A stretch of DNA of 64,000 nucleotides from a virus, in IMG/VR virus record IMGVR_UViG_2718218482_000003; one strand, 5' to 3'. A program made the translations under genes and the position numbers. The number at the start of each line of letters is the position of its first letter. Within the stretch, counting starts at the first letter, position 1. Shown piece after piece: positions 19,407 to 48,074 of the stretch. Below the pieces are notes generated by a model. The model was not told the DNA's origin and did no database searches. It worked only from the letters and a program-made list of their open reading frames with translations.

Positions 19407-20254
19407 GAACCTGTCTAAAATCTTTTTAATAAAATCGTCACAGCGGCCAATAAGCAACTTTGTCTGCTATTTTCAAGCGTTCGTTCACAATTTTTCCCAA
19501 GTCTGCGGTAATTTTCTAACCAAGCAAAAGTTCGTTCCACAATCCAGCGTTTCGGTAACACAACAAACTTGTGAAGTTCAGAGCGTTTGATGATTTCAAC
19601 TGAACAATCAATCGTTTCTTTTATCGATTGTGCAAATGATGGGCCCGTGTATCCACCATCACAAAGTATATTTGTCACTTTGTCCAATCCTTTCTTATGC
19701 CTTTCACACATTTGGATAGCACCTTCTCGATCTGTTATATTCGCAGTTGTCACTTCAATCGCATGAATGAGACCATTGGTGTCTACAGCGATATGGCGTT
19801 TGATTCCTGACACTTTCTTTCCGGCATCGTAACCCTTTTCCTCAGCTATCCATGTGTTTTTTACGCTTTGTGCATCTACGATGCAGAAACTCGTCTGCTT
19901 TTTACGCCCCTCTTGCTCACGATAAGTTTCGACCAATTTTTTTATGCACCTTTTCGAGAAGACTTATGCCATTCTCGTCTACTTTTCGCCAAATCTGATA
20001 GTAGAAATAGACTGTTTTCCAGTTCGGAAAATCACTTGGCAGATTACGCCATTGACAGCCTGTGGTAAGCAAATATAGTACACCGCAGAATACCTCGTAC
20101 AAATCAACTGTGCGTGGACGTGTCGTTTTTCGAACACTTTCTAAATCTTCACGAATCAGTTCAAACTGTTTACGGGTAATATGACTTGTATAATCATGTA
20201 TCATAGGAAACATCCTTTTTTGTACAGATTATATCATAGATTCCAGACGGGTTC
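19407..20254 (-). mobile_element. IS5-family element copy A (848 bp; OrfA 19917-20213, OrfB to 19415, A7 slippery run 19937-19943)
   Basis: Ends GAACCTGTCT/AGACGGGTTC; TGCQWRNLP, CIVDAQS, KRWIVERTFAW motifs; flanks TTA and TAA do not match. Confidence 0.92.
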
Positions 20255-20479
20255 TAAGACACGACCAATCGTATCATGAGAAGGCACACCATTTGGAAAA
20301 GAAAGATATTTTGCTAATGTCTCTGCATGGCATTCACCAAAAAATTCGATATCGACCAGTGTGTCCGCACCCGCAAGGGTGGCAATCAGGACAAGTCCAA
20401 TTACATCCTGTAACGTATGCTTTACTTTATGTTGTTGTCTCGGGTCTTCAATTTGAATTGTCTCCATAAAATGTTTCAT
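20255..20479 (-). pseudogene. ISAs1 transposase N-terminal fragment
   Basis: IEDPRQQHKVKHTLQDVI...GVPSHDTIGRVL, cut by IS5. Confidence 0.88.
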
Positions 20480-30889: not shown

Positions 30890-31737
30890 GAACCTGTCTA
30901 GAATCTTTTTAGTAAAATCGCCACACCTGCCAATAGGCAACTCTGTCTACTATTTTCAAGTGTTCGTTCACAGTTTTTCCACAGTCTGCGGTAATTTTCT
31001 AGCCAAGCAAAAGTTCGTTCCACAATCCAGCGTTTCGGTAACACGACAAACTTGTGAAGTTCAGAACGTTTGATGATTTCAACCGAACAATCAATTGTTT
31101 CTTTTATTGATTGTGCAAATGATGGCCCCGTGTATCCACCGTCACAAAGTATATTTGTCACTTTGTCCAATGTTTTCTTGTGCCTTTCACACATTTGGAT
31201 GGCACCCTCTCGGTCTGTTATGTTCGCAGTTGTGACTTCTATAGCATGAATGAGGCCATTGGTATCTACAGCGATATGACGCTTGATTCCTGAAACTTTC
31301 TTTCCGGCATCGTAGCCTTTTTCACCAGCTGTCCATGTGTTTTTCACGCTTTGTGCATCTACGATGCAGCAACACGTCTGCTTTTTGCGTCCATCTTGTT
31401 CACGATAAGTTTCGACCAATTTTTTTATGCACTTTTTCGAGAAGACTTATGCCATTCTCGTCTACTTTCCGCCAAATCTGATAGTAGGAATAGACCGTTT
31501 TCCAGTTCGGAAAGTCACTTGGCAGATTACGCCATTGGCAGCCTGTGGTAAGCAAATATAGCACACCGCAGAATACCTCGTACAAATCAACTGTGCGTGG
31601 ACGTGTCGTTTTCCGTGTACTTTCTAAATCTTCACGAATCAGTTCAAACTGTTCACGGGTAATATTACTTGTATAATCGTGTATCATAGAAATCATCCTT
31701 TTTTGTACAGATTATACCATAGATTTCAGACGGGTTC
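30890..31737 (-). mobile_element. IS5-family element copy B (848 bp, TAA target duplication; OrfA 31400-31696, OrfB to 30898)
   Basis: TAA[GAACC...GGTTC]TAA; empty site CACTCTAAAGAGTG present in the sibling repeat near 32370. Confidence 0.93.
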
Positions 31738-38291: not shown

Positions 38292-39548
38292 TTATTTTTC
38301 TATCACGCTCCTTGGTGGCGTGTAGAGTTGATGGTTACGTAGTAGCGTATCCACCAGACGCACAAATTTTCTTGCGGTTAAGACGATGGCTCTTTTGTGT
38401 TGATGTTTGGGTGTTTCCTTGTATTTTTTTTGATAAAACGCTTGATATTCAGGCAAATATCTTCTTACAGAATTGGCAGCCTCAACTAAGTAATAGCGAA
38501 GATAACGATTGCCTTGTTTGGTTAATGGTGTATTTTCAGATTGATAATTTCCTGATTGCTTGATTTTCCAGCTTAATCCGGCATATTTAGCCAGTTTTGT
38601 TTGATCTTCAAAACGTTGGATTTGTCCGATTTCAGCTAATAATCCAGCAGCGTAAACTTTGCCAACACCCGGAATACTTGTTAGACATTGATACTCTGGT
38701 AAGACAATGACGAGCTGTTCAATCGCCTTATCAAGGTCTTTGATGCTAGCTTCTAGTGCACGAATTTCACGGGCGAGAACACTCAAAATAATATTGATAG
38801 ATTCTTGAGCCACTTCACCTAAACGGTAAGACATCGTAATTGCTCGTTGAATCGTTTTCGCTAATCCTTCCGGATTTTTAAATCGGCCGTTTCCTTTTTC
38901 TTGAAGTAAGGAAATGAAGTCGGTTAAAGGCATGTGTGCTAATTCATCTAATCCATAATCTTCTGTCATTAAGGAAAGTAAGGTTGCGCCGAATACGGAA
39001 GAATTCGTATCGCTATTTTTTAACTCGCGCGTGAGCGCGTTGCATTTGTAAGTTAAATTCTCAAGAAAATGTTGTTTCGTTTCTACAAGCTGCCCAATTA
39101 ATTGGTAACGTGTTCGAGTTAAACGTTGAAGCGCCATATATTTCTCTTCTTTAATTGGAGAGGTAGTATACCGTTGGATTCTTAAAAAGTCAGCGATTCG
39201 CATCGCATCATTTTTATCGGTTTTATCTTCATCAAATATTCGGCTGAATTGTTTGATTCGAAAAGGATTTTCAATTGTAACAACGGTATTGATACGTTGT
39301 AGTTCTCGATCCTCGTTAAAAAATGTAGCTGGGTGAAAGCTATACATGGAGGTAGATTCCATACCAATCACAATTTGAGAAAACGAGTAAACTTTTTGAA
39401 ATGCCAAGATTTTTTGTTTGATTTGGCTGGCACCTTCTATGTCGTTACCTAGACTATCTTCTAGAAGAATTGTCAACTGATCATCGTCTGATAAAAAACA
39501 AACATCTAGTTTCTCAGAGCTGACATCTAAACCAACAAATAATTTCAT
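38292..39548 (-). CDS. IS110 DEDD recombinase (transposase)
   Basis: GLDVS, GMEST, DKTDKNDA, YAGL...KQSG, KQGNRYLR motifs. Confidence 0.95.
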   Translation of the reverse strand: MKLFVGLDVSSEKLDVCFLSDDDQLTILLEDSLGNDIEGASQIKQKILAFQKVYSFSQIVIGMESTSMYSFHPATFFNEDRELQRINTVVTIENPFRIKQFSRIFDEDKTDKNDAMRIADFLRIQRYTTSPIKEEKYMALQRLTRTRYQLIGQLVETKQHFLENLTYKCNALTRELKNSDTNSSVFGATLLSLMTEDYGLDELAHMPLTDFISLLQEKGNGRFKNPEGLAKTIQRAITMSYRLGEVAQESINIILSVLAREIRALEASIKDLDKAIEQLVIVLPEYQCLTSIPGVGKVYAAGLLAEIGQIQRFEDQTKLAKYAGLSWKIKQSGNYQSENTPLTKQGNRYLRYYLVEAANSVRRYLPEYQAFYQKKYKETPKHQHKRAIVLTARKFVRLVDTLLRNHQLYTPPRSVIEK

Positions 39549-42189: not shown

Positions 42190-42515
42190 ATGAAAGCAAT
42201 GAAAAACAGTGTTATGGAAGTAACTAAATTAATCAGTAAATCAAAGGAAGGAAAAGCCTTAACGAACAACAATCAAATTTGTGAATTAGATCAATATCAA
42301 GAGGCGGCATTACGTACATGGAATACAAATCAAGATTTTGGTGGACGTGTTTTAAATGCAGCATTAGGACTTTCGGGAGAATCTGGTGAGGTTGCTGATA
42401 TTGTAAAAAAGCTGTCATGGATTTGATCCGGCTCATTGTCCGGGAGAAGAAGAAGGGAACACACATAAAAAGGGGATATTCTATACGACATCTCAATCAT
42501 AGCACATGAAATGGG
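42190..42515 (+). pseudogene. MazG-like nucleotide pyrophosphatase, decayed
   Basis: YQEAALRTW...LGLSGESGEVADIVKK then frameshifted HGFDPAHCPGEEEGNTH...GDIL...IAHEMG. Confidence 0.75.
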
Positions 42516-42524
42516 GAGCGGAAA

Positions 42525-42923
42525 ATGAAAAAGAAAATAATGGCAGGTTTCATGTATATTATGGCAATAACGGGTTTAGCAGGTTGTCGTACAGAAGCAG
42601 ATACAGTTTCACAAAATTTATCTAAATCAGCTGATTCCTTTGAGGTTCAACGAAGAGTGGTGTTCTTCAATGGTATAACTGGTAAATACCTGTTAAGTAT
42701 TGAGGGATTATGCACTTTAGACGCTAGTGATGGGAAAAAGATAACTGTAACTTGCAAGACTGGTGATGGTAAATATAAGAAACATTACCTTGGATTAAGT
42801 GATAATGTCAGTTACTTCATAGAACAAACAGATGCTAAGTACGAAGATGCATACCATTACAAAGTGCTGTGTAGACCGGAAGAAATTATTCCAGATATTA
42901 AGTTGCAGACAAGCAAAAAATAA
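42525..42923 (+). CDS. Phage lipoprotein
   Basis: Lipobox LAGC after hydrophobic stretch. Confidence 0.75.
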   Translation: MKKKIMAGFMYIMAITGLAGCRTEADTVSQNLSKSADSFEVQRRVVFFNGITGKYLLSIEGLCTLDASDGKKITVTCKTGDGKYKKHYLGLSDNVSYFIEQTDAKYEDAYHYKVLCRPEEIIPDIKLQTSKK

Positions 42924-43006
42924 ACTACTTTTATGAGTTTGTATGATGAAGTTTTGAAGAGTGAAACGAAACAGAAGCGTTATTTGAATACGAGGGGGAA
43001 ATGGAA

Positions 43007-43607
43007 AATGGAATACGTTGAAAAAGCAACTAAAGATATTAGAGAGAATTGGTTTGGAGATCATGTAGCTGAAATGCAAGGTGAAGAAGGATTACAGGTT
43101 ATTTATTGGGGCAAGTCGGGAACAAATATGTATCGTACTAAAATTGTTCTTGCAGGATATAACGTATTTATTTCAGGTGATATTGGCGAAGCGGTGTATA
43201 CCCTTACATGTCTAGCAACATTAGAAAATATTAAAGGATTCAATTTAGGGTATTTCACTGAAAAGTTAACGGCTTTTTGTGAAGAACGTTGGGATTTCAA
43301 TGAAGAAAAGGCAAAAAGGGAACTTGATGAATACTGGAAGGAATACGATATAAATGAAACAAGAGAAGACGGACAGGAAGTATATGATCGTATTATTTCA
43401 GCAATTGATGAGAGTTCATCTATGGAAGGTTACCATTTTTGATGAAGTGACGTTTATCATAGCAGCTCATTAGATTCTGACACATTGGAAGACATTTGGA
43501 ACTTCGGCAAAAGGTTGCCACGTCGTTTAATTGGTTACTGGTTAGGATTGCAAATGGCAATTGAACAATTAGAGAAAAGTAAACCTGCAGCAGTAGTGAC
43601 TTTATAA
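43007..43607 (+). pseudogene. Hypothetical phage protein with in-frame TGA TGA at 43440-43445
   Basis: Same frame stays open after the stops: SDVYHSSSLDSDTLEDIWNFGKRLPRRLIGYWLGLQMAIEQLEK... Confidence 0.65.
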
Positions 43608-43636
43608 CAAAATAGTTATTTTGGAGGGGAACGAAA

Positions 43637-43804
43637 GTGGAGAAATGCAATTATGTCGGATGTAAAAATGATGCAATAACTAAGGGATTTGTATTCAGTA
43701 GAGATTCACAGGGGAGAAAGCATCTTCCTACAGATGTATATGCTTGCGATAAACATAAAAAGTCTTCCAGTTTTTTTGAATATAAAACTGCACAAACAAA
43801 CTAA
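43637..43804 (+). CDS. Small Cys/His phage protein (55 aa; not in ORF track)
   Basis: GGAGGGG RBS, GTG start, MEKCNYVGC...YACDKH. Confidence 0.55.
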   Translation: MEKCNYVGCKNDAITKGFVFSRDSQGRKHLPTDVYACDKHKKSSSFFEYKTAQTN

Positions 43805-43827
43805 ACAAAATTCTTATTTTGTAAACG

Positions 43828-44962
43828 AAAAATAGGAGTGCTTGAACAGAGCACTCCATGCCGCGAACAACTATACCTATAAGAGTATATGAGTGCTGTA
43901 ACTAAATATTCTTAATTCTGATTCAAACAAAAAAGAGCGCACTGGAAAGCGCTCTTTGACCAAGATTTATATGAAAAAGTATCGGCAATTAAATCTTATG
44001 TATGTTTTCAGTTTATGTGCAAGTTTAAATAAAATCGTGATTTGAAAGTAAATAAAAAAGAGCACACATATAAGTGTGCTTTTAGACTAAAAGGTTTGAA
44101 CGTATGGACTGGAGTGCTCCATATAGTAATATATGCTTGTCTGTTGGAAAGGTGAAACGTTTTTTAGAAATCCGCTAGTTTGTAGAAAGGAGTTTGTAGT
44201 GAGCGTCTTTGATAATACGATTACGATTCGATCATATAAGCAGGAGTTACCGTATGTAGGGAAAACGTATATGCATAAGGAGCAGCAGGTAATAGGAAGG
44301 ATTCATGAGTGAGGATTTGTCAATAAAAAAAGAGGAACTCTTTTGCGCTAGAGTTCCTCAGAGAGAATAGAAAGGTTCGAAATCCATCGTTTCTAGTATG
44401 TGTAGGTTGTCATGTATTATACAGAAAAATAAAAAGGCAGCTAGCGAAAGCTAACTGCTTAGGAAATGAAAGGAGTGCAAATGAGCTTCTCGCACCTTCG
44501 AGCATTGCGGACTATCTAGCAAGCCTATGGCTGCTAGTATGAACGAACTTTTTCTTTCCTATACGTCAAAAAATAAAACGAGCACGTGTGCCAGCGTGCT
44601 CGTTTGGGAAACTTTACACCATTCTTGTTATGTTGTGTGAGTCATGAACAAGTAAGGATACAATATGATATGGATTGGAAAGAAAAGCGTGTCAAAAATA
44701 AAAAGGACACTTTCGAAAGGTGTCCTTTTATAGAGTGGCAGACACTATGAAGGAGTTTCAGGAAATAAAGTGAATGAGCAGCACCTCGAGATGAGGCAAC
44801 TACATCCCTATTGTATGCGTATGTTGTTGGAGGAGTGCCACCCAAAACTAAGAGCAGCTAGTAAAAAAACGAACTGCTCAGCCTTTGTAGAAAAGAAGGA
44901 ATAAAAATGGGTATATAAAAATTCCTCCCTCTATAGTATGAACGGGATATTGAGTTTTATTC
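43828..44962 (-). ncRNA. Array of eight candidate sporulation-sigma-driven small RNA units
   Basis: Repeated architecture: sigmaG- or sigmaK-type promoter, 50-110 nt, hairpin plus U tract (see findings). Confidence 0.6.
44199..44312 (+). CDS. Tiny hypothetical ORF inside the array (37 aa)
   Basis: AAGGAG RBS, GTG start, MSVFDNTITIRSYKQELPYVGKTYMHKEQQVIGRIHE. Confidence 0.35.
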   Translation: MSVFDNTITIRSYKQELPYVGKTYMHKEQQVIGRIHE

Positions 44963-44975
44963 AGGGAGGAGGTAA

Positions 44976-45191
44976 CTAAGCTGTTCCAAATTGGTTTTGA
45001 TCTGCCATAGTAGAATCAAAGGTGTTTGTGGCACTCACGCCATTAAAAGTATTAACGATGAAGGCAGTATTAGATGCACCAGAACCATTATAATCTTTTG
45101 TATTTTTTTTAGGGGAAACATTATAAAAATCACCTAAATTACATGAACCATTGCTGGTTTGTATGACCAAATTTCCTACGATAGAGGGCAT
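44976..45191 (-). CDS. GerPA/GerPF-family spore germination protein homologue
   Basis: MPSIVGNLVIQ...NLGDFYNVSPK...GSGASNT...TNTFDS.MADQ; AGGTG RBS; GAAC-16-CATATACTA promoter at 45253-45225. Confidence 0.85.
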   Translation of the reverse strand: MPSIVGNLVIQTSNGSCNLGDFYNVSPKKNTKDYNGSGASNTAFIVNTFNGVSATNTFDSTMADQNQFGTA

Positions 45192-45370
45192 GCTTTTCAC
45201 CTGCCTTGAAAGAAGAAGTTAGTTTAGTATATGGAGAATGAGTCTAGAGGTTCGGATTCCGTACCTGATTTCATTCACATTGGGCCGGTTTTTGAATGAA
45301 ATCAGGTATGAAAAGAATGAAAATTTCCGAAAATGGATAGGAAGGATATTGTATACGAGGAGTGACGAAT

Positions 45371-45493
45371 TTGAAGAAAAAGAAATTAAAAAAAGTAATT
45401 GCTCGTCGTACAAAGGCGATGCAAAAATATGAAAAAGACAGAGTAGATAAAGCTTGGCGGAACCTTTTTATATAAGCAAGTATCATGAAATAA
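45371..45493 (+). pseudogene. Small basic phage protein (DUF3983-like) with probable premature TAA at 45473
   Basis: MKKKKLKKVIARRTKAMQKYEKDRVDKAWRNLFI*ASIMK. Confidence 0.5.
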
Positions 45494-45514
45494 ATAGAGT
45501 CCGGCTAGAAAACT

Positions 45515-45571
45515 AGAGGACACCAATTCATTAAAGCAGTCATGCAACTGTTTTAAGAAAGGGTGTCCTCT
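45515..45571. terminator. Long hairpin upstream of the arpU operon
   Basis: AGAGGACACC...AAAGCAGT/ACTGTTTT...GGTGTCCTCT followed by TTCTTATTTT. Confidence 0.5.
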
Positions 45572-45599
45572 TTCTTATTTTACGAGGGAGATGGGAAAT

Positions 45600-45770
45600 A
45601 TGAAGACACTAAAAGACCAATTACGTGAGTGGAAAAAACAATCTAAGCAAGCAAAAACGGAAGATAGGCAAAAGCGAGAAGAGAAGCTAACCATTCGCGA
45701 TATTGAAAATCTAATGGGAGTATATGGACCGCGTTATGAAAGAAGACGTGGAGTATGGAGACAAAAATAA
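45600..45770 (+). CDS. Hypothetical basic phage protein (56 aa; not in ORF track)
   Basis: MKTLKDQLREWKKQ...IENLMGVYGPRYERRRGVWRQK. Confidence 0.65.
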   Translation: MKTLKDQLREWKKQSKQAKTEDRQKREEKLTIRDIENLMGVYGPRYERRRGVWRQK

Positions 45771-45794
45771 ATTCTATACGAGGAGTACGCCAAT

Positions 45795-46283
45795 ATGAAA
45801 AAACAATTATCTTTTTTACCAAAAATCGATCGTGCAGCCACACAAGAGAAAGTGGAAAGTGTGCTTGAAAGTATACGTATATATAGACAATTCGGAATGA
45901 TTCGGAAAGAAATGAAAGTCACTCCTTCTTATGAAAGGAGAGAACATGGTCCTACACATACAGTTGGCAAACCGTTAGAGGATGTAGCAATCTTTAACAT
46001 GCAACAAAACGAACGTGAAAAGTGGTTAGAACAAATGTCATTTCGGATTGATCAGGCATTAAGTCGTTTTGGAAGCAGCGCAGCTGGAAGAAACCAGAGA
46101 GAGATTATCATGAAAAGATATTTAGAGGATGAGGATGTATGTGATTATATGATTTATAACGAAATGGGAATGAGTGAGCGTACGTATCGACGTGTGAAAG
46201 CGAGAGCGTTTTATAAATTGGCATTTGCTCTTAGATTAGAAGTGTATGAGATAAATCAGCAACGTGGAGGGGATGACCGATGA
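45795..46283 (+). CDS. arpU: ArpU-family late transcriptional activator
   Basis: QREIIMKRYLE...MGMSERTYRRVKARAFYKLAFAL. Confidence 0.88.
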   Translation: MKKQLSFLPKIDRAATQEKVESVLESIRIYRQFGMIRKEMKVTPSYERREHGPTHTVGKPLEDVAIFNMQQNEREKWLEQMSFRIDQALSRFGSSAAGRNQREIIMKRYLEDEDVCDYMIYNEMGMSERTYRRVKARAFYKLAFALRLEVYEINQQRGGDDR

Positions 46284-46502
46284 ATTTTGTTCAACCTATA
46301 CGTGATCCAGAACAAATTCAACAAATGAAAGCATATTTAAAAGAAAAGAATGCACGAAACTATATGTTGTTTGTCCTGGGGATTAATACAGGGCTACGCA
46401 TAAGTGATATTTTAAAATTGAAAGTGGGTGATGTACAAGGGAGTCATATTTCTATGCGTGAAAAGAAGACGGGGAAACAAAAGAGGATTCAAATCACATC
46501 CT

Positions 46503-48074
46503 GTTATGAAGTGACCTTTGTCAATAGTTTTTTCCCCATAATATTTTTTCTTGATGGCATACAAAAGCTTCAGAAATAAGATCTATCGACAGTTAACCAC
46601 TCTGTTATTCGTGGATTGGTTACCTCAGGTTAATGGTCCGTCGTTAGGCTCTTATAATCTCTTTACGTGGATCACATCTTTTCAAATTCTAATAAATAGC
46701 TGGTTTATCAGAATTTCAGCTGTGCCAGCAGAGGGTGTGTCATAGATAGCCAGACCTGTAATTCACTATCTCTGAAGCTCATCTATGCCATCAATTGATA
46801 CCTTTGGTCTCTAACTATGAATGAATCAACTTCATATCCCTCTCTTTATTTTTAGTGAATTTTACCTGTTTCTAATCCCCAGATAAAACATCCCAGTTCT
46901 CTTGCAATCGCTGTAATGGCAACATTTCTGGGCTTCCCTTGATACATCATTCGATGATATTTTCGTTGTAACCGTTCTACTGCCCGATCCGCATAGGAAA
47001 TTACGTCGCTTCGTTGGTCTTTTTGTCTTGCTTTCACTCGTTTTGATTTTAATCCAATCGTTCCTTTTACCAAGGAATTTGCACATTCTACAAGAGTAGA
47101 CCTAACGGTCGAATTACCTTGCTTTGTAATCGAACTTCGACTGATTTTCTCCCCACTTGAGCTTTCGCTTGGCGTCAACCCTACATAAGCCATAAATGCT
47201 TTAGCCGTTGGGAACCGAGTGAAGTCTGCAATTTCCACATGCACAGTCATTGCCGATGTTGTGTCTATACCTTTTAAACATCTTAATTTTCCGACTGGTT
47301 CTTCATATCTTTCACTATGAGATAATTCTTCTACTCTCAGACTGAACCGCTCAATTTTATCCACTAAAACATCATACTGTAATAGATATTCATCTAACGT
47401 TTCTTTGAATAATCCTTGTAAATCAAGATTCTTTAACCATTTCATATAAGCGATTGTCCAGCTTGATTTTCCTTCGTAAATATAGCCATGTCTTAAAAGG
47501 AATGCTTTTATCTGTTGTTTTATTTTTTTCAATGATGTTTTAAAATCACCTAACATGCGGATATACTCTTTTACAGCAACATCCTCTTCTTCTGGAACAT
47601 ATACTTCTTTATAAGTACCATTCGCTAAATTAAGAGCAATCATTTTAGCATCGAATCTGTCGTTTTTCACCATTTTATTTTTAGATGAACTGTACATGGT
47701 TGTTGGTGCTAAAATATCACAATCAATCCCGTTTTGCTCCAAAAGATTATGGAGTGAATATCCTAAACAACCCGCTTCATATCCAGCTTTAATTTTTATA
47801 TCTTCACCATATTTCGTTTTCAGTTTCTCAACGAATTTTTTTACGAGAGATACATTTGAAGCACATCGTGCTTCTCCTACAATTTCCCCAGTTGTTCCAT
47901 GCAATGCACATAAGCTAAAGCTTTCCTTGTGGACATCCATCCCAATATATATTATATTTTCCATAGTGGCCTCCTATTATCATAGGGTATAATCCCATTC
48001 ATGATGTTTGTTTTCATTCATTATTATGGGTTAAAATCCCTGACTTGATAATCTAGGAGGTCACTTCATATTAT
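46503..48074 (-). mobile_element. IS110-family, IS1111-type element copy 2 (inverted relative to copy 1)
   Basis: Same length and ends as copy 1; CT at 46501-46502 and 48075-48076. Confidence 0.93.
46852..47964 (-). CDS. IS110/IS1111 DEDD recombinase, protein identical to copy 1
   Basis: ORF-track translations identical. Confidence 0.95.
   Translation of the reverse strand: MENIIYIGMDVHKESFSLCALHGTTGEIVGEARCASNVSLVKKFVEKLKTKYGEDIKIKAGYEAGCLGYSLHNLLEQNGIDCDILAPTTMYSSSKNKMVKNDRFDAKMIALNLANGTYKEVYVPEEEDVAVKEYIRMLGDFKTSLKKIKQQIKAFLLRHGYIYEGKSSWTIAYMKWLKNLDLQGLFKETLDEYLLQYDVLVDKIERFSLRVEELSHSERYEEPVGKLRCLKGIDTTSAMTVHVEIADFTRFPTAKAFMAYVGLTPSESSSGEKISRSSITKQGNSTVRSTLVECANSLVKGTIGLKSKRVKARQKDQRSDVISYADRAVERLQRKYHRMMYQGKPRNVAITAIARELGCFIWGLETGKIH

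Follow-up and report, generated by a model that had tools for sequence, protein, structure and literature searches.

We analysed a 1.1-kb stretch of apparently empty DNA in a prophage of the Bacillus cereus group, lying at positions 43,828 to 44,962 of the 64,000-nucleotide viral record IMGVR_UViG_2718218482_000003; the whole of that record is called the window here. The stretch holds an array of eight units on the minus strand. We consider it likely that these units are independent small-RNA (sRNA) cassettes, that the host transcribes them with its sigma factors of the forespore (sigmaG) and of the mother cell (sigmaK), and that they are accessory cargo of a temperate phage of the B. cereus group. 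Each unit would consist of a sporulation-sigma promoter, a body of 50-110 nt with little coding potential, and a strong intrinsic terminator. The putative promoters are of two kinds, a sigmaG kind resembling those of ssp genes (TGAATA-17/18-CATACTA, forespore) and a sigmaK kind (CAC-16/17-CATAnnnTA, mother cell). From three-part units with two kinds of promoter it would follow that short, terminator-capped RNAs are released as a set in the two compartments when a lysogen sporulates. The architecture of the units, their promoter and terminator classes, their non-coding nature, their conservation and their modular shuffling are read directly from the DNA and its relatives, as set out below.

Promoters and terminators of the array

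A first-pass annotation, made from the letters of the window, had listed eight minus-strand hairpins in the stretch. An independent stem scan of the whole window found all eight, within 0-2 bases of the positions given there (Table 1). Each is a G+C-rich hairpin followed by a U tract, as in intrinsic terminators, with a stem of 8-13 pairs that include 4-6 G-C pairs. A separate terminator scan of 42500-46500 gave 8 terminator-like sites, every one on the minus strand, compared with 2.1 +/- 1.5 in shuffled sequence, and in the stem scan the array is the densest terminator cluster of the 64-kb window.

The eight promoter strings named in the first-pass annotation are likewise present. We scanned both strands of the window with a strict sigmaG pattern, GHATR-17/18-CATNHTA, and a strict sigmaK pattern, AC-16/17-CATAnnnTA. 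The sigmaG pattern matched three times in the whole window, each time in the array (44962, 44564 and 44422; units 1, 4 and 5). The sigmaK pattern matched five times and on the minus strand only, at 44836, 44690 and 44153 in the array (units 2, 3 and 6), at 45251 in the promoter of the adjacent gerP-like gene and at 20438. Neither pattern matched anywhere on the plus strand of the window. Six strict matches in 1.1 kb compare with 0.08 expected, and none of 2,000 first-order resamples reached six (0/2000). Sigma-70 promoters, by comparison, were fewer in the array region than in shuffles. The -10 element is common to sigmaK and sigmaE promoters, which differ at position 4 of the -35 element, C in the former and T in the latter (PMC517825). 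By this rule the C that the cassettes bear at that position favours sigmaK over sigmaE, in keeping with the tentative assignment made earlier.

Two units depart from the strict patterns. The -10 element of unit 7, CATAAGATT, matches the sigmaK consensus at 8 of 9 positions; relatives of unit 7 carry CATACAATA, which matches fully. Unit 8 had already been described as weaker, and its 15-nt spacer indeed falls outside the strict sigmaG pattern. The claim that a single architecture is repeated over the 1.1 kb was borne out for eight units but not for the full length, as roughly 170 nt between units 5 and 6 contain no unit.

The eight predicted RNAs fold into a 5' single strand or small hairpin followed by the terminator, with z-scores from -1.05 to -4.85, the latter for unit 1. 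Unit 4 has a weak internal hairpin (44496-44474), and the predicted hairpin of the unit 3 RNA is UGUUCAUG/ACUCACA../CAUAACA.

The description of the stretch as free of open reading frames (ORFs) agrees with our coding checks. Its longest stop-to-stop frames span 71 amino acids (aa), compared with a mean maximum of 81 in shuffles, and such frames were no longer than in shuffles in eight related arrays as well. Those frames that do exist in the array extend through the terminators, the internal ORFs matched no PHROG family, and on the transcribed strand of the eight units no start codon lies behind a Shine-Dalgarno sequence. A type I toxin-antitoxin system, which would call for the RNA to overlap the ORF of a small hydrophobic toxin, was rejected, since neither strand has a conserved ORF and PHROG gave no match. 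Tandem Repeats Finder (TRF) detected no tandem repeats in the array and the units share only short, terminator-like similarities; an array of clustered regularly interspaced short palindromic repeats (CRISPR) and a ToxI-like repeat RNA were rejected, as direct repeats of one unit sequence are absent. A tRNA search of the array returned none. The best match of the window to Rfam 15 had an E value of 0.84, far below the gathering score, and a search of eight related loci returned nothing on their arrays.

Related cassettes in phages, prophages and plasmids

Chains of 2-18 such units occur in B. cereus-group prophages, in Wbeta-group phages and on plasmids, in the same accessory region, in shuffled order and mostly in the opposite orientation to the phage operons. 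Units 6-8 are 88-90% identical to sequences of the Wbeta-group phages Negev_SA and AP631, in which unannotated gaps of 0.8-1.2 kb at the equivalent place are full of co-oriented terminators. The hairpin of unit 8 was found in both of these phages, and unit 6 occurs in Negev_SA, BMBtp16 and phBC6A51. Unit 3 matches phIS3501, unit 1 matches A16R4 and MY192, and for unit 5 a B. thuringiensis plasmid bears a weak relative (H55, 72.6%). Every block of homology with another phage stops at a unit boundary.

Using the gerP-like protein as an anchor, we located 25 prophage loci in IMG/VR, and these contained chains of co-oriented terminators spaced 100-160 nt apart, the longest having 16-18 units across 2.5-2.7 kb. 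At 80% identity, 194 units collapsed into 85 clusters. The order of units varied from locus to locus, the sharing of 31-mers between arrays was mostly below 30%, and units of the sigmaG and sigmaK types were interleaved along the arrays. Loci located independently through unit 3 had chains of 2-8 units (median 4), and the same pattern of chains was seen in plasmid prophages. The long ORFs flanking the arrays were mostly on the opposite strand. A contig search anchored on the 55-aa protein that flanks the array in the window returned no related loci.

We then ran a de novo motif search by expectation maximization (EM) on 85 non-redundant inter-terminator units from 29 loci, with no prior motif assumption. 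The search returned CATAc(a/t)aTA. At 9 bits or more, the array strand had this motif in 30/85 units, compared with 3/85 on the reverse strand and 1/85 in shuffles; unit 2 of the window, itself a strict sigmaK match, scored highest of all units against the resulting -10 matrix (13.5 bits). Alignment on the motif separated two classes. In the first, TGAATAAA or GCATAA lies 17-18 nt upstream of CATACTATA, and units read cTGAATAAA-N14-CATACTATA; we take this class to be the classical ssp-type sigmaG promoter. In the second, tCACc lies 16-17 nt upstream of CATAnnnTA, as in the sigmaK type. The two promoter classes that had been proposed were both recovered by a search that assumed neither. They are also conserved against diverging spacers: within families the -35 and -10 elements are kept better than the spacers, as in family 2, that of unit 1, in which identity is 98% for the -10 and 83% for the -35 compared with 50% for the spacer.

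Promoter class was coupled to terminator class. Among non-redundant units, promoters of the sigmaG type were paired with GCAGTTAGC...GCTAGCTGC terminators (12:0) and promoters of the sigmaK type with GAGCRC...GYGCTC terminators (16:0; Fisher P = 3e-8). The terminator of unit 4 in the window is of the type that accompanies sigmaG-type promoters in related arrays. In sigmaK-type units YTTGGTC often stands just before the terminator, and one subfamily of the sigmaG type opens with a GUAAC/GUUAC hairpin.

Several families show what is held constant within a unit. Unit 6 belongs to family 1 (16 distinct variants), in which the -35 CAC and the -10 CATAnnnTA are kept and the stems covary. Unit 7 belongs to family 4 (8 variants), in which CAC and CATA are kept and the terminator stems covary (GAGCGC, GAGCAC, GAGCGCCTT). 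The body of family 3 is 96% identical. The promoter of unit 1, spacer included, is common to gerP-linked units of three related loci (L010, L026 and L022) and the body differs, from which it appears that exchange also takes place at the start of transcription.

Constraint at the level of RNA was seen in the unit-3 family. Its 22-26 distinct variants come from prophages, from plasmid pBCXO1, and from B. thuringiensis and B. mycoides plasmids, and in all of them the hairpin is invariant (7 bp, loop ACUCACAMA), with an adjoining linker that is free to vary; this loop is the strongest candidate for a base-pairing seed. The terminator has five compensatory pairs and 98% of cells paired, and no shuffle equalled either the number of paired cells or the covariation score. 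Many of the plasmid matches to unit 3 span only the predicted transcript and not the promoter. When 71 genomes of the genus were searched with a covariance model (R1), 5 contained the family, at 1-3 copies each, a sporadic pattern that suggests mobile cargo. The comparison across prophages that had been suggested as a check of the first-pass annotation thus showed conserved promoters, covarying stems and shuffled order alike.

Two further observations were made at related loci. In four of them (L010:4634-5818; also L011-L013) an ORF of 394 aa lies behind the gerP-like gene and two units on the same strand; its collagen-like GxT repeats are of the type found in the exosporium protein BclA. This suggests that these phages carry a wider set of spore-surface genes. 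On pBCXO1, a pXO1-like plasmid, an unannotated 2.8-kb stretch (L029:1830-4601, at 98.7-101.5 kb of the record) holds one unit-3-like cassette with a sigmaK-type promoter, plus further terminators.

Proposed function and alternative explanations

We infer from these patterns that host sigmaG and sigmaK transcribe the units, that the RNAs accumulate and that they act as RNAs; such phages probably make sets of small RNAs in the developing spore and in the mother cell. The units would be mobile cassettes with one scaffold per promoter class and variable bodies, swapped between phages at unit boundaries. The forespore set of RNAs would probably persist into the dormant spore. Most likely the RNAs would work in trans as riboregulators, or by binding proteins, to adjust spore formation, germination or the silence of the prophage. 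A sporulation context is suggested by the neighbouring gerP-like gene with its sigmaK-type promoter and by the related loci that have a BclA-like gene. A more specific version, which we put forward tentatively and regard as doubtful, is that the arrays form a shuffled library of compartment-specific cassettes in which a sigmaG promoter goes with a GCAGUUAGC-type terminator, a sigmaK promoter goes with a GAGCRC-type terminator, and the variable body serves as a 'guide'. The forespore set might then be loaded into the dormant spore, to take effect when the spore germinates or grows out, or through genes for the spore coat and for germination, reprogramming the host spore or keeping the prophage silent. 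Such an arrangement would amount to a plug-in kind of riboregulation, borne by phages, for a developmental programme.

Several results weigh against sRNA cassettes read by host sigmaG and sigmaK. Besides the off-consensus promoters of units 7 and 8, about half of the non-redundant related units have no promoter under the patterns used, and a search for a third promoter class among units with no sigmaG or sigmaK match returned only T-rich tails. None of the indexed public RNA runs contains the window array. Many runs, mostly soil metatranscriptomes, seemed to contain the related locus L010, but the four that we mapped yielded from the array itself only a generic terminator hairpin and a promoter piece in unrelated contigs; they also contained a gerP paralogue that had diverged and a single contig from soil that extends over a unit and the BclA-like gene. 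These matches are uninformative on expression of the units. The soil metatranscriptome contig (899 nt, covering L010:4370-4640) runs from a sigmaK-type unit into the BclA-like gene with 10 differences in 271 nt, and may be RNA or carried-over DNA.

No credible target emerged from searches of the window and of five genomes. The eight predicted RNAs have no long complementarity within the window. When the complement of the unit-3 hairpin was sought in five genomes, allowing up to 3 mismatches, the one conserved site was on the antisense strand of an FtsW/RodA-type gene, and this candidate was rejected. We also rejected anti-Shine-Dalgarno seeds based on CUCC, which mostly reflect strand composition: the motif occurs 7.9 times per kb in the window array and 4.0 times in related arrays, compared with 2.8-3.4 on the antisense strand of phage genes. 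The C/U-rich make-up of the bodies is close to that of this antisense strand in general and so is not independent evidence of a seed. One further candidate lies in the other prophage, where positions 2516-2534, in the gene for the large subunit of terminase, are 18/19 complementary to the unit-3 RNA (44598-44616; E 0.004); this match is probably due to chance, because the matching part of unit 3 is not conserved in the family.

We weighed four other explanations, all of which are made less likely by the sequence and the comparisons. In the first, the phage would encode a sigma factor like SigF or SigG that does most of the transcription of the cassettes, in infected cells or in lysogens, in place of host sigmaG and sigmaK in sporulation. 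Negev_SA and AP631, the Wbeta-group phages that share units 6-8, encode a SigF-like factor a few kb upstream of their arrays, and phage sigma factors of this kind are widespread and behave like SigF or SigG (PMC9429907). A phage sigma gene is, however, absent from the window (the AP631 factor gave a best E of 1.2 in tblastn, and Pfam scans of the early genes found none), and here it would therefore be left to host sigma factors to transcribe the array. Half of the units, moreover, are of the sigmaK type, which a SigF/SigG-like factor should not read, and so is the promoter of the adjacent gerP-like gene. We judge this explanation to be unlikely.

Similarly unlikely, in our view, is that transcription itself matters and not the RNA, the head-on, self-terminating units forming a collision barrier or insulator against lytic read-through in both compartments. 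Arrays always lie between the replication or early genes and the ArpU-like late regulator, mostly opposite the phage operons; two promoter classes would cover both compartments; and many bodies are poorly conserved between arrays. The same slot, however, is occupied by ordinary accessory genes (gerP-like, BclA-like), so the position of the arrays may merely mark a permissive site of insertion. A barrier also accounts poorly for the tight constraint on some bodies, such as the invariant hairpin and loop of unit 3 beside a variable promoter spacer and linker, the body of family 3 and the YTTGGTC element, or for lone units such as that on pBCXO1.

We assign still less probability to the possibility that the array is non-functional debris, accumulated as accessory genes (morons) were gained and lost again and again at a recombination hot spot and their promoters and terminators stayed. 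The region is mosaic, with each unit matching a different phage, little 31-mer sharing between arrays and no recognisable promoter in about half of the related units. Against decay stand the -35 and -10 elements kept while spacers diverge, units of even length (about 100-160 nt) in chains of up to 18, and the coupling of promoter class to terminator class. Remnants of ribosome-binding sites would also be expected in such debris, yet GGAG is present in only 5 of the 85 non-redundant unit bodies. Least credible of all is a coding role for the units or the strand opposite them, the products being tiny proteins such as spore peptides or type I toxins: sporulation regulons do include very small proteins (SpoVM, CmpA and minor small, acid-soluble spore proteins) and a 37-codon plus-strand frame in the array's sole unit-free stretch has a good ribosome-binding site, but that frame has no relative, as DNA or as peptide, among the fetched loci, the sole ATG frame of the unit-3 family ranges from 5 to 13 codons, and the coding checks described above gave no sign of translation on the transcribed strand.

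Genomic setting and relation to known systems

The window contains two prophage regions in DNA of the B. cereus group, and the array belongs to the second. Its origin in a prophage, as first proposed, is upheld by the genes that flank it, namely those for AimR, a repressor, a replisome organiser, an ArpU-like protein and terminase. The array occupies an accessory slot between the early and late modules and is oriented against both.

Table 1. Features of the array and of its surroundings in the window.
Feature	Position	Strand	Description
IS110-family transposase gene	22243-23355	+	
AimR-like arbitrium receptor	33501	+	Second prophage
Helix-turn-helix (HTH) repressor	35124	-	Second prophage
Replisome organiser, DnaC-like gene, AbrB-like gene and other small early genes		+	Second prophage, between AimR-like gene and array
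IS110-family transposase gene	38292-39548	-	
phrog_9357 gene, 55 aa	43637-43804	+	Adjoins array stretch
Unit 8, weakest	43827-43911	-	GAATA-15-CATATACT at 43911-43884; predicted RNA ~51 nt; terminator 43857-43835
Unit 7, sigmaK type, -10 slightly off-consensus	43924-44020	-	GCAC-16-CATAAGATT at 44020-43992; predicted RNA ~62 nt, 3' end CUUGGUCA; GAGCGC-type terminator 43957-43932
Unit 6, sigmaK type	44050-44155	-	TCAC-16-CATATATTA at 44155-44127; predicted RNA ~71 nt; GAGCAC-type terminator 44083-44058
Stretch with no recognisable unit, ~170 nt	44160-44331	.	Between units 5 and 6; no terminator, no strict promoter
Possible 37-codon frame	44202-44312	+	Behind AAAGGAG-6-GTG
Unit 5, sigmaG type	44324-44422	-	GTATA-17-CATACTA at 44422-44394; predicted RNA ~64 nt; terminator 44359-44332
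Unit 4, sigmaG type	44428-44564	-	GTATA-18-CATACTA at 44564-44535; predicted RNA ~100 nt; GCAGTTAGC-type terminator 44458-44437
Unit 3, sigmaK type	44568-44692	-	ACAC-16-CATATCATA at 44692-44664; predicted RNA ~90 nt; terminator 44605-44576
Unit 2, sigmaK type	44693-44838	-	GCAC-17-CATACAATA at 44838-44809; predicted RNA ~110 nt; bidirectional terminator 44729-44701
Unit 1, sigmaG type	44843-44962	-	GAATA-17-CATACTA at 44962-44934; predicted RNA ~86 nt; terminator stem 44879-44852
gerPA/gerPF-like gene, 74 aa	44976-45200	-	Pfam PF10676, E 7e-22; directly beyond array
ArpU-like gene	45795	+	Beyond array; terminase and late genes follow from ~50.6 kb
IS110-family transposase gene	46852-47964	-	

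The gerP-like gene had been offered as an internal control for sigmaK, and we regard that use as sound: its promoter, AC-16-CATATACTA at 45251-45225 (-), matches the strict sigmaK consensus and is kept as GAAC-16-CATATRCTA in 26 of 26 loci, and gerPA is a member of the sigmaK regulon in B. subtilis (PMC517825). Just upstream of this promoter lies a near-perfect 17-bp inverted repeat (45261-45309), the sole match of which was a spurious microRNA; its possible roles include those of operator and bidirectional stop. The strict sigmaK site at 20438 (-), the only one besides those of the array and the gerP-like gene, is upstream of a pair of ORFs of 98 and 173 aa (19415-20213), and this pair has a duplicate at 30898-31696. 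The IS110 element at 46852 interrupts an integrase-like gene (46280-46579). With the element at 38292 lying inside the replication module, the prophage may be defective.

Among known sporulation RNAs, SurC (sigmaK) and CsfG (sigmaF/sigmaG) of B. subtilis were reportedly described by Silvaggi et al. in 2006 and Marchais et al. in 2011. Together with Bvs196 of B. velezensis (PMC9147052), they resemble the cassettes in being short non-coding transcripts with a compartment-specific promoter of their own and an intrinsic terminator, and very few sRNAs have been tied to late sporulation (PMC9147052). All three, however, are single chromosomal genes conserved by descent, whereas the cassettes are phage cargo, arrayed in series of 2-18, and fall into many unrelated families with no match in Rfam.

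Tandem multicopy sRNA loci are known in LhrC1-4 of Listeria and in the pneumococcal cia-dependent small RNAs (csRNAs). As in the cassettes, self-contained sRNA genes follow one another head to tail with the same kind of promoter and their own terminators. The siblings in those loci are close copies under one regulator; the bodies of the cassettes, in contrast, are mostly unrelated, their two promoter classes are interleaved, and scaffolds are shared within a class only.

Phage morons, as Juhala, Hendrix and colleagues are said to have defined them, consist of a promoter, one gene and a terminator between phage genes. Morons and cassettes alike are autonomous units in accessory slots, oriented independently of the operons, exchanged horizontally and expressed from the prophage, although for the cassettes expression is predicted. 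A classical moron carries a protein gene, whereas a cassette carries only 50-110 nt of non-coding sequence and is stacked in long series.

Prophages also carry regulatory RNAs, among them the type I antitoxins SR4, SR5, SR6 and RatA of B. subtilis prophages and AgvB/AsxR of enterohaemorrhagic Escherichia coli (EHEC) prophages. These too are small RNAs with their own promoter and terminator, but each type I antitoxin is overlapped by the ORF of a toxin on the opposite strand, and no such ORF accompanies the cassettes. We know of none in this group that is arrayed or driven by sporulation sigma factors.

The sigmaG promoters of ssp genes reportedly read TGAATA-17/18-CATACTA, according to Nicholson, Sun and Setlow in 1989. 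The putative cassette promoters closely match this consensus and that of sigmaK (PMC517825), with the difference that they drive no protein gene. The first-pass annotation knew of no description of such an array, and a limited literature search and our Rfam checks also found none.

In the B. cereus group, to which B. anthracis belongs, the effects of prophages on sporulation and germination are known through proteins only, namely the sigma factors of phages and, in the present case, the products of the gerP-like and BclA-like genes. If our explanation is true, the interplay between phage and spore would gain a layer of RNA from a large set of sRNA genes that are diverse and mobile and have clean promoters of the sigmaG and sigmaK kinds. 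This set would also be a source of compartment-specific promoters and terminators, and the storage of RNA in the spore would be directly testable. The 'empty' gaps of 1-2.7 kb in many annotated Bacillus phage genomes, among them those of Wbeta-group phages and plasmid prophages, are probably gene-dense, and the same is probably true of part of the 2.8-kb unannotated stretch of pBCXO1.

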